DNA from: a virus
Virus genome (UHGV): UHGV-2113617
Strand: one strand, 5' to 3'
Length of the DNA: 64,000 nucleotides
Shown: positions 6,775 to 12,210 of the stretch, piece by piece
Layout of the letters: each line of letters begins with the position of its first letter
How positions within the stretch are numbered: position 1 is the first letter of the stretch
Notes under the pieces: generated by a model
What the model was told of the DNA's origin: nothing
Database searches by the model: none
The model's input: only the letters and a program-made list of their open reading frames with translations
Made by a program: the position numbers and the translations under genes

Positions 6775-7053
6775 TCAAAATGTAATTTCTAACCAATCAC
6801 CATCACGCTGATCACTATTGACTTTAAAGCTAAATCCTTCTTTTCTCAGCCAATCACCAATTTCTTCAGTAATCAATTTATCACGAGCAGTACAATAATA
6901 ACTAAAATATGTTTTACCTTGTTCAGCTGCTTTATTAGCAAGTTCCGAAAAATCTTTAATAAAACACTCTAGTTTAAACTGTTTACTTTTAAGTGCTTTT
7001 TCGCGTAATTGATTAGCAAAAGATTCATTTTCATAAAGATCATACTGTTCCAT
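6775..7053 (-). CDS. hypothetical protein (T4 24.2-like position)
   Basis: 92 aa ORF tightly packed between rnlB and the next gene. Confidence 0.5.
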   Translation of the reverse strand: MEQYDLYENESFANQLREKALKSKQFKLECFIKDFSELANKAAEQGKTYFSYYCTARDKLITEEIGDWLRKEGFSFKVNSDQRDGDWLEITF

Positions 7054-7255
7054 TTTTCACCTTCTTATTAATATGTCTTTTTCTATAGACAACTTTTTCT
7101 CGAGTCTCAAATTTATTCTTAGCAGTCATAGCTCGAGCCCATAATACAGCCACTTCCTTTGCCTGTAAGTTCAATTCACGAGCAATTTCAATGAATGACT
7201 TTCCAGACTCATGGAGTGTAAACACCACAACCTCAGTTCTCATAATCAATCTCAT
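7040..7255 (-). CDS. hypothetical small protein, possible helix-turn-helix
   Basis: 71 aa ORF; segment SGKSFIEIARELNLQAKEV resembles an HTH. Confidence 0.45.
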   Translation of the reverse strand: MRLIMRTEVVVFTLHESGKSFIEIARELNLQAKEVAVLWARAMTAKNKFETREKVVYRKRHINKKVKNGTV

Positions 7256-7323
7256 GTTATCGAGTTGATGCCATTATATACATCGTTTTCTGATTGTGTT
7301 TTGTGTGCTTTCAAAATGAAGAA

Positions 7324-7339
7324 AGGGGCCGAAGCCCCT
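7324..7339 (-). terminator. GC hairpin downstream of hoc
   Basis: AGGGGC-TTCG-GCCCCT hairpin immediately after hoc stop, followed by TTCTTCATTTTG on the minus strand. Confidence 0.45.
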
Positions 7340-7343
7340 GAGA

Positions 7344-8762
7344 TTATGGATAGGTATAGATGATACCAGTTTCTAAAGCAGTTTTATGAATGATGTATCC
7401 ATTACGCGATTCTTGAACATCAACTTCTGGATAGTCTTTCATCATCTTCTGAAGAGTGTAACGATGCAGGTAGTATTTACTGTCTGGATCTTCAGTTTTC
7501 CAATCTTTACCTTCTTCAGTCATTTTTTGGATTTCATCCATAACCCACCAACCGCACCAGATATAAGCTGAGCTACGATGTGGAAGAGGATGAACATAAG
7601 GTAATTCACCTTCTGGTTCCGGAGCAACTTTATCAGTCACTTGAACTTGACCTGTGGCTTTAACTGTTTTACTATCATAGTCAGTTGCTGTAACGACAGC
7701 AGTAACTTCAATAGTTTGACTTCCAATAGATGAGGTATCAACAGTATATACGTTAGTTGACCCTTCTACAGGAGAAGAATCTTTCTTCCATGAGTAAGTA
7801 ATTTGTGCTGCTTCAGGTGCGCCAGTAACATTAGCAGTAAATGTAGCCGAAGCATCTTGCTGAACATTAATAGAAGGAGGAGTCAATGTAACCTGTGGAT
7901 TCATTGTCTTCTTATTAACCGTTAATGATACTTCATTAGAAGTAACTGTTTTTGCGTCGTAATCCGTTGCTGTTACTTGGGCTATACATTTAATTTTTTT
8001 AACTCCAGCCACAGTTGGAGTATAGTTAAATGTAGAGTTAGTTTCTCCACCAACTTGTGAATCATCTACATACCACTGATACGTAGCAGACGCTCCATCA
8101 GGTTGAGAAGCTAATGCAGCAGTAAATTGAACCGGGGTTCCAATTACTCCAGCAGCAGGACTAGCAGGAGTTACTGCCAAGGTAGTTGTCTGCGTCTTTT
8201 TATTAACAGTCAGTGACACTTCATTAGAAGTAACTTCCTTTGTATCATAATCTGCCGCGGTTACTTGAGCTACACACTTAATTGTTTTAACTCCGCTTGT
8301 AGTAGGAGTATAATTGAATGTAGCAGAAGTTGCTTCGCTCACAGGAGAACCGTCAACGTACCATTGATACGTAGCAGATGCGCCCGATGGCTGTGAAGCT
8401 AAGGCAGCAGTAAATTCAACAGCTGTTCCGATTACTCCTTCTGGAGGACTATTAGGAGTTACAGCTAAGGTAGTTGTCTGTGTCTTATTTTGAACTGTGA
8501 TAGTTGTACTAATTTCAGCTGTTTCAGCATCAGTATCTGGAACTGGGTTTGTTGCAACTACTTTAATAGTTTTTAAACCGGCAGGTCCTTTTAGTACATA
8601 ACTAAAAGTTGCAGATGTTTCTTCCTGTGGAACATCATCTACAGTCCAAGCATATGTAATAGGTCCATCTCCAGTTTGACCACTGGGTGTAGCAGTAAAC
8701 TGCTGAGTCTGATCTATAACTCCAGTAGGTGTTTTAGGAGTTATATCAACTGTAAAAGCCAT
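7344..8762 (-). CDS. hoc: highly immunogenic outer capsid protein Hoc, extended form with an extra Ig-like domain
   Basis: 472 aa against 376 aa recalled for T4 Hoc; conserved C-terminal capsid-binding region (PEPEGELPYVHPLPHRSSAYIWCGWW); internal near-identical 96 aa tandem repeat. Confidence 0.85.
   Translation of the reverse strand: MAFTVDITPKTPTGVIDQTQQFTATPSGQTGDGPITYAWTVDDVPQEETSATFSYVLKGPAGLKTIKVVATNPVPDTDAETAEISTTITVQNKTQTTTLAVTPNSPPEGVIGTAVEFTAALASQPSGASATYQWYVDGSPVSEATSATFNYTPTTSGVKTIKCVAQVTAADYDTKEVTSNEVSLTVNKKTQTTTLAVTPASPAAGVIGTPVQFTAALASQPDGASATYQWYVDDSQVGGETNSTFNYTPTVAGVKKIKCIAQVTATDYDAKTVTSNEVSLTVNKKTMNPQVTLTPPSINVQQDASATFTANVTGAPEAAQITYSWKKDSSPVEGSTNVYTVDTSSIGSQTIEVTAVVTATDYDSKTVKATGQVQVTDKVAPEPEGELPYVHPLPHRSSAYIWCGWWVMDEIQKMTEEGKDWKTEDPDSKYYLHRYTLQKMMKDYPEVDVQESRNGYIIHKTALETGIIYTYP
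7911..8486 (-). repeat. tandem direct repeat of about 288 bp x2 inside hoc, encoding duplicated Ig-like domain
   Basis: Protein residues about 93-187 and 189-284 are near-identical (KTQTTTLAVTP...SNEVSLTVNK); DNA copies visibly similar. Confidence 0.8.
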
Positions 8763-8771
8763 AAGTTATCC

Positions 8772-9452
8772 TTATTTTAATGTTACGAAAGAAGAATTGC
8801 GTGTTTCACGAATTAGAACTGATCCGTCACGATTAATGTAGTAAATTAAGCTAAATAAAGTTTGATGCGCCGACGCGTGTTCAAAACTAGTTGGGTGAGA
8901 TTTCCAATCCGGAGTTTCAGCAATCCACTGGTAAATCCACCAAGGAACCGTGCAAAATCCTGGATTTTTTCCAATCAGCTGAAGATTCGGACTAAAGTTT
9001 TCCGGAAGAGTAAATACAGACGGCTTTTCAGATTCAATAATCTCAGCTACAGCCTGTTCGAATTTTTCTTCAACAAAAGGAGTATCTTCAATCAAAACAT
9101 TGGTATTTTCAGGAATTTTATCCGTTTCTACTACTTCAATTTTAATGTCAGATTTAACCGGAGAATCAATCAGAAGTGCTGCTTCTGGATTGACTTCTTC
9201 ATCGTCATATTTTAACCCTTCTGCGGCATCAGCAGCATCAATTAAGTCTTTAATAGATAACCCATCAGTCTCTGGCATAGGTTCACTAGCGAGCTTCTGG
9301 AGGGCTTCTTCAATATCAATAACGATATTATCAAAAGATTTATTCTTTTTGACCTTTATACCAATCTGTTCAGCATATTCAGCTAATTTAGCTTTAGCTT
9401 CTTTATTATCATCAAGAGCCTTCAGCTCTGCAATATAATCTTTATCTATCAT
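8772..9452 (-). CDS. inh: inhibitor of prohead protease (Inh)
   Basis: 226 aa, same length and position (between hoc and uvsW) as T4 inh. Confidence 0.65.
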   Translation of the reverse strand: MIDKDYIAELKALDDNKEAKAKLAEYAEQIGIKVKKNKSFDNIVIDIEEALQKLASEPMPETDGLSIKDLIDAADAAEGLKYDDEEVNPEAALLIDSPVKSDIKIEVVETDKIPENTNVLIEDTPFVEEKFEQAVAEIIESEKPSVFTLPENFSPNLQLIGKNPGFCTVPWWIYQWIAETPDWKSHPTSFEHASAHQTLFSLIYYINRDGSVLIRETRNSSFVTLK

Positions 9453-9465
9453 AATATTTCCTCAG

Positions 9466-9473
9466 TATAAATA
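9466..9473 (+). promoter_or_regulatory. late promoter (TATAAATA) upstream of uvsW
   Basis: Exact TATAAATA about 30 nt upstream of the uvsW ATG. Confidence 0.65.
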
Positions 9474-9502
9474 TAGATATATTTATTACATGGTATTTAG
9501 AC

Positions 9503-11014
9503 ATGACTGACATTAAAGTACATTTTTATGATTTTAGTCACGTGAGAATTGATTGTGAAGAAAGTACATTTCATGAACTCCGTGATTTCTTTAGCTTTGA
9601 AGCTGATGGGTATCGTTTTAATCCGAAGTACAAATATGGTCATTGGGATGGACGAATCCGTCTTTTAGATTATAATCGCCTTCTTCCATTCGGCTTAGTC
9701 GGGCAAATTAAAAAGTTCTGTGATAACTTTGGCTATAAAGCTTGGATTGACCCACAGATTAACGAAAAAGAAGAATTATCAAGAAAAGATTTTGATGAAT
9801 GGCTTTCTAAATTAGAAATCTATTCAGGAAATAAAAGAATTGAACCGCATTGGTATCAAAAAGATGCAGTGTTCGAAGGATTAGTTAATCGTCGTAGAAT
9901 TCTTAATCTTCCAACATCCGCAGGTAAATCCTTAATTCAAGCTTTGCTTGCGCGTTATTATTTGGAAAATTATGAAGGTAAAATTCTTATCATTGTTCCA
10001 ACAACTGCTTTAACAACTCAGATGGCTGATGACTTCGTTGACTATCGTTTATTCAGTCATGCAATGATAAAGAAAATCGGCGGCGGAGCATCAAAAGATG
10101 ATAAATATAAAAATGATGCACCGGTAATTGTTGGTACATGGCAAACTGTAGTAAAACAACCAAAAGAATGGTTCTCACAGTTTGGAATGATGATGAATGA
10201 TGAATGCCATCTTGCCACAGGAAAAAGTATTTCATCTATCATATCAGGTTTAAATAACTGCATGTTCAAATTTGGTCTATCGGGTTCATTACGTGATGGC
10301 AAAGCTAATATCATGCAGTATGTTGGAATGTTTGGTGAAATATTTAAGCCAGTAACGACTTCTAAATTAATGGAAGATGGACAAGTAACTGAGTTAAAAA
10401 TTAATAGTATTTTTCTTCGTTATCCTGATGAGTTCACTACTAAATTAAAGGGAAAAACTTACCAAGAAGAAATAAAAATTATTACTGGGCTCAGTAAAAG
10501 AAATAAATGGATCGCTAAATTAGCTATTAAACTTGCGCAAAAAGATGAAAACGCTTTTGTCATGTTTAAACATGTATCACATGGTAAAGCTATTTTCGAT
10601 TTAATTAAAAATGAATACGATAAAGTTTATTACGTATCAGGGGAAGTTGATACCGAAACTCGAAACATAATGAAAACCTTAGCTGAAAACGGTAAAGGAA
10701 TAATTATAGTAGCTAGTTATGGTGTATTTTCTACTGGTATTTCAGTTAAAAATCTGCATCACGTTGTTTTAGCACACGGTGTTAAATCTAAAATTATTGT
10801 ATTGCAAACAATAGGTCGTGTATTACGTAAGCATGGTTCTAAAACAATCGCAACGGTCTGGGACCTCATAGATGACGCGGGCGTAGTTTCTAAATCAAAA
10901 ACATCTTCTAAAAAATACTCGCATTTAAACTATCTTTTAAAACATGGACTTGATCGTATTCAGCGTTATGCTGATGAGAAGTTTAATTATGTGATGAAAG
11001 AGGTTAAACTTTGA
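9503..11014 (+). CDS. uvsW: UvsW DNA/RNA helicase
   Basis: 503 aa; DExH box (MMMNDECH); length and position match T4 UvsW. Confidence 0.9.
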   Translation: MTDIKVHFYDFSHVRIDCEESTFHELRDFFSFEADGYRFNPKYKYGHWDGRIRLLDYNRLLPFGLVGQIKKFCDNFGYKAWIDPQINEKEELSRKDFDEWLSKLEIYSGNKRIEPHWYQKDAVFEGLVNRRRILNLPTSAGKSLIQALLARYYLENYEGKILIIVPTTALTTQMADDFVDYRLFSHAMIKKIGGGASKDDKYKNDAPVIVGTWQTVVKQPKEWFSQFGMMMNDECHLATGKSISSIISGLNNCMFKFGLSGSLRDGKANIMQYVGMFGEIFKPVTTSKLMEDGQVTELKINSIFLRYPDEFTTKLKGKTYQEEIKIITGLSKRNKWIAKLAIKLAQKDENAFVMFKHVSHGKAIFDLIKNEYDKVYYVSGEVDTETRNIMKTLAENGKGIIIVASYGVFSTGISVKNLHHVVLAHGVKSKIIVLQTIGRVLRKHGSKTIATVWDLIDDAGVVSKSKTSSKKYSHLNYLLKHGLDRIQRYADEKFNYVMKEVKL

Positions 11015-11703
11015 ATTATAAATTAATATACGATAATTTAATTAATAGAGCCCAGAATCGGGCTCGCCTTAATGGATACACTGAAACTCATCATATAATT
11101 CCTAGATGTATGGGCGGTACAGATGATAAGTGTAATTTGGTAGAACTAACAGCTGAAGAGCATTTTATAGCTCATAAACTTTTAGCTAAAATTCATCCAA
11201 ACCATTACGGTATAATTAAAGCCGTTATATGTATGGGGATGAATTCAAAGACTCATGAAAGACACGTTAATAAATCTTACGCCTGGGAACGTCGTAAAAT
11301 GGCAGAACTTCAATCAGGTGAAGGTAATCCATTTTACGGAAAACACCATACGGAAGAACATAAACAATATATGTCAAAACTCATGAAAAATCGTCCAATT
11401 ACATGGGGAAGTAAAATTAGTAAAACTAAAAGAATGAACCCAACAAAATGGACTGAAGAAGCTAAAAGATTGCATTCTATCAATCAATCAGGTAAAAATA
11501 ATGGCATGTATGGAAGGAAACATTCCGCTAAATCTATTCAGAAAATTAAAGATAATATGCCAGATAATTCAGGAGCTAATAACCCAGCTGCTAAACCTAT
11601 AGAAGTAAATGGTGTTAAGTATAAATGTATGAAAGACGCTTCTAAAGCTACTGGATTATCAATGTACAAACTAAGAATACTTAGAAAAACAGTTAATTTA
11701 TAA
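11011..11703 (+). CDS. free-standing HNH homing endonuclease with NUMOD-like repeats
   Basis: 230 aa; HNH core ETHHIIPRCMGGTDDKCNLVELTAEEH; probable TTG start with SD AAGAGG 7 nt upstream, overlapping the uvsW stop; paralog of ORF 39023..39733. Confidence 0.8.
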   Translation: MNYKLIYDNLINRAQNRARLNGYTETHHIIPRCMGGTDDKCNLVELTAEEHFIAHKLLAKIHPNHYGIIKAVICMGMNSKTHERHVNKSYAWERRKMAELQSGEGNPFYGKHHTEEHKQYMSKLMKNRPITWGSKISKTKRMNPTKWTEEAKRLHSINQSGKNNGMYGRKHSAKSIQKIKDNMPDNSGANNPAAKPIEVNGVKYKCMKDASKATGLSMYKLRILRKTVNL

Positions 11704-12182: not shown

Positions 12183-12210
12183 GATTGTCTCCTCTAAATT
12201 ATATATCTAT

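Follow-up and report, generated by a model that had tools for sequence, protein, structure and literature searches.

The window analysed here, a stretch of 64,000 nucleotides of the virus genome UHGV-2113617, carries a hoc gene whose product has one immunoglobulin (Ig)-like domain more than Hoc of phage T4. Rather than being a fresh copy, this domain is a paralogue of domain 2 that diverged long ago. We assign a probability of about 0.85 to the explanation that this is a normal, intact hoc for a protein of four Ig domains, the extra unit of which stems from an ancient duplication followed by recombination.

The gene is a minus strand open reading frame (ORF; 7344..8762) and specifies the highly immunogenic outer capsid protein. 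A first-pass annotation, made from the sequence alone, had called it hoc. We confirmed this assignment by a phmmer match to T4 Hoc (PDB 5vf3 chain Z; E 7.9e-214), Ig-type Pfam matches and T4-like neighbouring genes. The same annotation had given the protein as longer than that of T4, and the ORF length (472 amino acids, aa) and PDB entry (376 aa) bear this out. The two proteins align in two blocks. Residues 1-103 of the window Hoc match residues 1-103 of T4 Hoc, and residues 189-472 match residues 93-376. Hence, one 96-aa unit of the window protein has no counterpart in T4.

Gene order around hoc is as in T4, judged from the T4 annotation and the Pfam labels of an identical contig. The inh gene (8772..9452) is upstream, and genes 24.3, 24.2 and rnlB are downstream. 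The uvsW gene is divergent from hoc and begins at position 9503. The hoc stop codon is followed by the hairpin sequence AGGGGC-TTCG-GCCCCT and then a run of T residues. This is likely to be an intrinsic terminator; a terminator is annotated at the equivalent place after hoc of phage NBG2. We also searched the minus strand upstream of hoc for the T4 late promoter sequence TATAAATA. There was no match nearby, the nearest on this strand being at position 12208, and the number of TATAAATA matches across the window was not above chance.

Some features of the neighbouring genes differ between phages. The homing endonuclease gene segE sits between inh and uvsW in T4 and in Yersinia phage PST. In the window, the inh-uvsW spacer (9453..9502) is 50 nt in length and lacks segE. 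Directly following uvsW (503 aa) is a plus strand ORF (11011..11703) of 230 aa with a TTG start codon. In a metagenome contig encoding an identical Hoc, the gene matching this ORF lies between uvsW and uvsW.1 and has a Pfam match to NUMOD3, which is of homing endonuclease type. The ORF is probably a mobile endonuclease insertion. The gene 24.3 homologue (7040..7255, minus strand) encodes 71 aa in the window, compared to 56 aa (171 nt) in T4 and 67 aa in other relatives. For this gene, the choice of start codon or the length differs among phages.

Tandem Repeats Finder identified one array in hoc (7906..8486) with a period of 288, 2.0 copies, 77% matches and a score of 696. The sole family of direct repeats in the region 7000..9200 pairs positions 7906-8193 with 8194-8481, at an ungapped nucleotide identity of 76%. 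The tandem repeat is far above chance, is in frame and does not interrupt the ORF. In the protein register, residues 93-188 align with residues 189-284 and 76 of 96 positions are identical. The first-pass annotation was right about these coordinates and about the unit length of 96 aa or 288 nt. Its identity of ~85% was somewhat high, since we measured 79% for protein and 76-77% for DNA. It had also attributed the additional Ig-like domain to an in-frame tandem repeat. The repeat search, the Pfam matches, the T4 alignment and an AlphaFold2 (AF2) model all agree with this, and the domain repeated is domain 2. The resulting layout is described in Table 1.

Table 1. Domains of the window Hoc and sequence features of the hoc gene (aa, residues of the 472-aa protein).
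Feature	Residues	Coordinates	Strand	Basis
Domain 1, Ig-like	1-92	8487..8762	-	AF2 strands, pLDDT 85-94
Domain 2 copy 1, lineage A; unit missing from T4	93-188	8199..8486	-	HMM match 93-188; loop GSPVSEATSA
Domain 2 copy 2, lineage B; orthologue of T4 domain 2	189-284	7911..8198	-	aligns with T4 Hoc 93-188; loop DSQVGGETNS
Copy 1/copy 2 junction, …SNEVSLTVNK/KTQTTTLAVTP…		8159..8238	-	translation; diagnostic 80-nt probe for at least two domain-2 copies
Domain 3, Ig-like (I-set/Ig_3)	285-380	7623..7910	-	Pfam Ig_3 289-355 and I-set 289-374; AF2 strands 290-376, pLDDT ~90
C-terminal capsid-binding domain	381-472	7347..7622	-	aligns with T4 Hoc 285-376
Terminator-like GC hairpin and T-run		7324..7339	-	scan match AGGGGCTTCGGCCCCT + TTCTTCATTT, directly after the hoc stop codon

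Four Pfam families scored above their cut-offs. These were PKD (42.8 bits, cut-off 23.5), Ig_3 (31.7, cut-off 30), Ig_2 (29, cut-off 27) and I-set (26.4, cut-off 23.7), and the matches fall on the domain-2 units and domain 3. The AF2 model, for which the input was 24 homologues, has four all-beta domains spanning residues 1-378 with a pLDDT of ~90. The two copies of domain 2 are predicted by this model to be independent beta-sandwich domains. The C-terminal domain was modelled with low confidence because the alignment was shallow. Comparison of the model with the PDB, using Foldseek, returned strings of four Ig domains (Dscam, Sidekick-2 and ICAM-5 D1-D4) and the RB49 Hoc fragment 3shs (E 6.4e-10 for 3shs). 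The differences between copies cluster at unit positions 46-55, corresponding to the two loops listed in Table 1, and in a few other patches. In copy 1, this loop stretch (residues 137-147) is located between strands in the AF2 model.

We estimated divergence by the Nei-Gojobori method. Copy 1 and copy 2 of the window gene differ with dS 1.02, dN 0.14 and dN/dS 0.14, where a dS near 1 across 96 codons is noisy and near saturation. Purifying selection acts on both copies. Against orthologous copies in other phages, the dS was 0.22-0.41. Copy 2 differs from copy 2 of Shigella phage ESh26 with dS 0.22, and from that of phage mobillu with dS 0.26. For copy 1, the dS was 0.26 with copy 1 of ESh26 and 0.41 with copy 1 of mobillu; taken together, copy 1 of ESh26, mobillu and T4_ev151 spans 0.26-0.41. 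Comparisons with T4 gave a dS of 0.32 for domain 1 (84% nucleotide identity, dN 0.14), 0.29 for copy 2 against T4 domain 2 (90% nucleotide identity), 0.32 for domain 3 and 0.19 for the C-terminal domain (96.4% nucleotide identity, dN 0.004). A between-copy dS of 1.02, set against 0.19-0.32 between the window and T4, indicates that the copies split several-fold earlier than the window and T4 genes. The pattern extends to the window protein and 120 cluster representatives. Here, first copies shared a mean identity of 0.88 with one another and second copies 0.86, compared to 0.80 for first against second copies. In 30 of 31 two-copy Hoc proteins, each copy resembled the units at its own position in other phages more than it resembled the adjacent copy.

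The domain-2 units fall into three lineages, A, B and C, which we called from the central segment of the unit (positions 44-69). They are told apart chiefly by a single loop region. Lineage A comprises first copies. Lineage B comprises second copies and the sole domain 2 of T4, JS09 and RB68. Lineage C comprises third copies and the sole domain 2 of UTI-E4, Geo and ESh30. Within lineages, dS was 0.20-0.52 (A), 0.19-0.55 (B) and 0.12 (C), compared to 0.70-1.8 between A and B. We then tallied arrays in 121 proteins, namely the 120 cluster representatives and the window Hoc. Single units were of type A in 54 proteins, B in 18 and C in 9. Arrays of two units were AB (25 proteins), AC (3), BC (1) and AA (1), and those of three units were ABC (3), A?C (3) and ABA (2). 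The order A-B-C was therefore broken only by the two ABA arrays and the one AA array among 121 proteins. None of the 121 proteins classified had a BA, CA or CB array. The window hoc is an AB array and T4 has B alone.

The ends of the unit are conserved (KTQTTTLAVTP … SNEVSLTVNK), and stretches of 14-18 nt within them are identical in the two copies. When the N-terminal, central and C-terminal segments were classed separately, the units proved to be widely scattered mosaics and clean classes were obtained in the central segment only. The flanking thirds have thus been heavily shuffled between lineages. Hence, A, B and C are strictly defined by the central segment only, and tree-like orthology of units is an approximation. 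Domain 2 of T4 has a B-type centre but an ALS signature at its C-terminal end, which is commoner in first copies. Such a mosaic unit is not predicted by a single unequal-crossover deletion from an A-B gene.

The two-copy gene is widespread. In a megablast search with the window hoc, 679 phage records matched and 596 of these covered at least 80% of the gene; many contain a 1419-nt hoc with 90-99% identity. Full-length coverage in this search was rejected as a counter of two-copy genes, since the split pieces of single-copy genes joined to give 100% coverage and there was no discrimination. Conversely, the junction probe listed in Table 1, used at a threshold of E<1e-13 that half-matches cannot pass, matched 229 phage records in a single piece. 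For 24 records the probe matched at two places. Taking each extra place as one extra junction, these double matches are consistent with a three-copy hoc (568 aa). A three-copy gene of 1707 nt was confirmed in ESh26 and T4_ev151. In a spread sample of 60 rows, 19 of the 50 full-length matches were ~1419 nt and 31 were ~1131 nt. Among the best 120 clusters from a large protein collection, 80 proteins were 376 aa in length, 29 were 472 aa and 9 were 567-570 aa. About one third of sequenced relatives carry the two-copy form, a fraction that is only indicative, given the sampling bias of both the cluster representatives and the GenBank isolates. The hoc gene of T4_ev240 has one copy of domain 2. 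The names T4_ev151 and T4_ev240 suggested a laboratory-evolution pair, and we discarded this idea as the records hold nothing to support it.

These data bear on how the array arose. The first-pass annotation had considered the duplication to be recent. A tandem duplication that was recent, in frame and confined to this phage lineage would account for two adjoining units that are in frame and exactly 288 nt each. It does not account for copies that are just 76% identical in nucleotide sequence with a dS of 1.02, or for the nearer orthologues that each copy has in other phages. Furthermore, when Hoc length was surveyed in close relatives, the same domain count was routine; the two-copy gene is found in the 229 deposited phage records with the junction, including a Mosigvirus. 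We regard a recent origin as highly improbable and the earlier reading fails. An expansion of the repeat during assembly, against which the annotation had cautioned, has the presence of a repeat in its favour and nothing else. The copies differ at ~68 of 288 positions (24%), so that reads can be placed unambiguously without collapse. In addition, the exact 472-aa protein of the window is encoded on six metagenome contigs, and hundreds of separately deposited phage records share the structure. The divergence of the copies and the six contigs lead us to exclude an assembly artefact, the chance of which is negligible.

A more serious alternative is that the A-B array was built by out-of-register (unequal) recombination between the divergent single-copy A and B alleles of co-infecting phages, and then spread. 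Single-copy genes are the majority and are of A, B and C types. The conserved unit ends, with their identical runs of 14-18 nt, could support such recombination, and hoc has clearly been exchanged between lineages, as the contrast between mobillu and RB69 illustrates. However, lineages separated by a dS of ~1 would still require that the alleles split very long ago or that a duplication came first. The near-invariant A-B-C order also implies one or very few founding events either way. In practice, this account differs from our best explanation just in how the events are ordered, and we consider it unlikely. Our preferred reading remains an ancient duplication followed by recombination. Most likely, one or two ancient in-frame tandem duplications of domain 2 would have founded the array. 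Homologous recombination between units would later have brought about deletion, re-expansion and shuffling, and segments of hoc would have been swapped among co-infecting T-even phages. The co-linearity of the arrays is in line with such a history.

Some hoc genes outside the main survey are informative in their own right. The Mosigvirus phage mobillu (MN850622.1, 1501..2919 of the locus) has a two-copy, Tequatrovirus-like hoc that is 90.6% identical to that of the window. For RB69, also a Mosigvirus, the match of hoc to the window gene is confined to the C-terminal 19% of the latter. The comparison indicates that the Ig part of hoc has moved across genus boundaries. A feature annotated as 'repeat_region' in mobillu was evaluated as a possible annotation of the domain repeat and rejected; it is 28 nt inside hoc. 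In phage T2 (NC_054931.1, 301..1417 of the locus), hoc is split into two short annotated ORFs. The two-copy hoc region of Yersinia phage PST (975..2394 of the locus) is 1420 nt long with a premature stop in frame 1, and its annotation covers the 3' part only. These cases reflect either decay of hoc in some relatives or frameshifts from sequencing.

In T4, cryo-EM shows that Hoc's C-terminal domain binds the centre of each gp23* hexamer, with 155 copies per capsid, and the Ig-like domains project as a fibre of ~180 Å (PMC10385173). The window Hoc would also bind the centres of gp23 hexamers through its C-terminal domain, because this domain is almost identical to that of T4. Its fibre would be one Ig domain longer. 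Dividing 180 Å among four domains, we estimate an increase of roughly 4-4.5 nm on the 18 nm of T4. We infer that the longer fibre carries two domain-2 surfaces. These would be non-identical, with differing loops, and could adhere weakly to mucin glycans or to the surfaces of bacteria. Adhesion of Hoc Ig domains to mucin glycans and to Escherichia coli surfaces has been reported. For Hoc of PNJ-9, contact with MUC2 and fucose was mapped to residues S183, L184 and T185 of the domain-2 motif NEVSLT (PMC11853027). At the sequence level, NEVSLT is present in both window copies (residues 180-185 and 276-281) and in 13 of 13 domain-2 units from seven hoc genes compared. It is plausible that the extra domain alters adherence or display.

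We tentatively raise a broader possibility, which we think rather doubtful at present. Domain 2 may be an adhesin cassette of variable copy number. In such a scheme, lineages A, B and C would differ mainly in one exposed loop and be kept in T-even populations by balancing or diversifying selection. One to three co-linear copies would be switched by recombination at the conserved unit ends, thereby adapting the reach of the fibre and its specificity for glycans or surfaces to different gut niches. If so, the A-B gene of the window would be one functional state of the switch.

T4 nanoparticle vaccines use Hoc as their main platform for display, and the protein has been proposed to mediate the adherence of phages to mucus. 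Hoc fibres with three, four and five Ig domains, built from three old variants of domain 2, occur naturally and are ready-made scaffolds of differing length. The same series is a natural experiment on mucus adherence as a function of fibre length or domain-2 type. The window hoc itself is a routine allele of a class found in hundreds of deposited genomes and marks no recent evolutionary event.

The feature seen in the window is already known. Variable Ig number has been published, and the 472-aa form is annotated as Hoc in hundreds of genomes. In our literature search on domain-2 duplication in Tequatrovirus Hoc, we found only general statements on variable Ig content and a three-domain variant; no explicit description of an ordered A-B-C polymorphism of one to three domain-2 copies among close T4 relatives was found. 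The A-B-C polymorphism is a modest observation in comparative genomics and not a new kind of system.

Comparison with known forms of Hoc places the window protein precisely. It shares with T4 Hoc (376 aa; PDB 5vf3 and 8t1x) the position of the gene, the layout of D1, D2, D3 and a C-terminal capsid-binding domain, a C-terminal domain that is 96% identical in DNA sequence, and a copy 2 orthologous to T4 domain 2. Unlike T4 Hoc, the window protein has a lineage A paralogue between D1 and the T4-type D2, making it 472 rather than 376 aa in length. Its architecture and length are identical to those of the 472-aa Hoc of deposited T-even phages such as OES_C-1/2/3, ECO07P4, vB_EcoM_IME340, NBG2, PP01 and mobillu, with 90-99% nucleotide identity across the entire gene. 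The annotations of these deposited forms read Hoc, Hoc-like head decoration protein or PKD domain protein. The window gene differs from them by point differences only and is one more allele. Three-copy Hoc proteins of 568-570 aa (for example, those of Shigella phage ESh26, T4_ev151 and UGKSEcP1/2) share the A and B units and their order, but a lineage C unit follows B in these proteins and not in the window. More widely, 650 Hoc homologues with up to 10 Ig domains have been described (Fokine et al. 2023, PMC10385173), and the Hoc of PNJ-9 is a variant without domain 3 (PMC11853027). The family with variable Ig number includes RB49 Hoc (3shs) and Hoc of Serratia phage Muldoon, which has 10 Ig domains. 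In contrast to this wider family, the variation described here is a polymorphism of one to three copies of a single domain among very close relatives.
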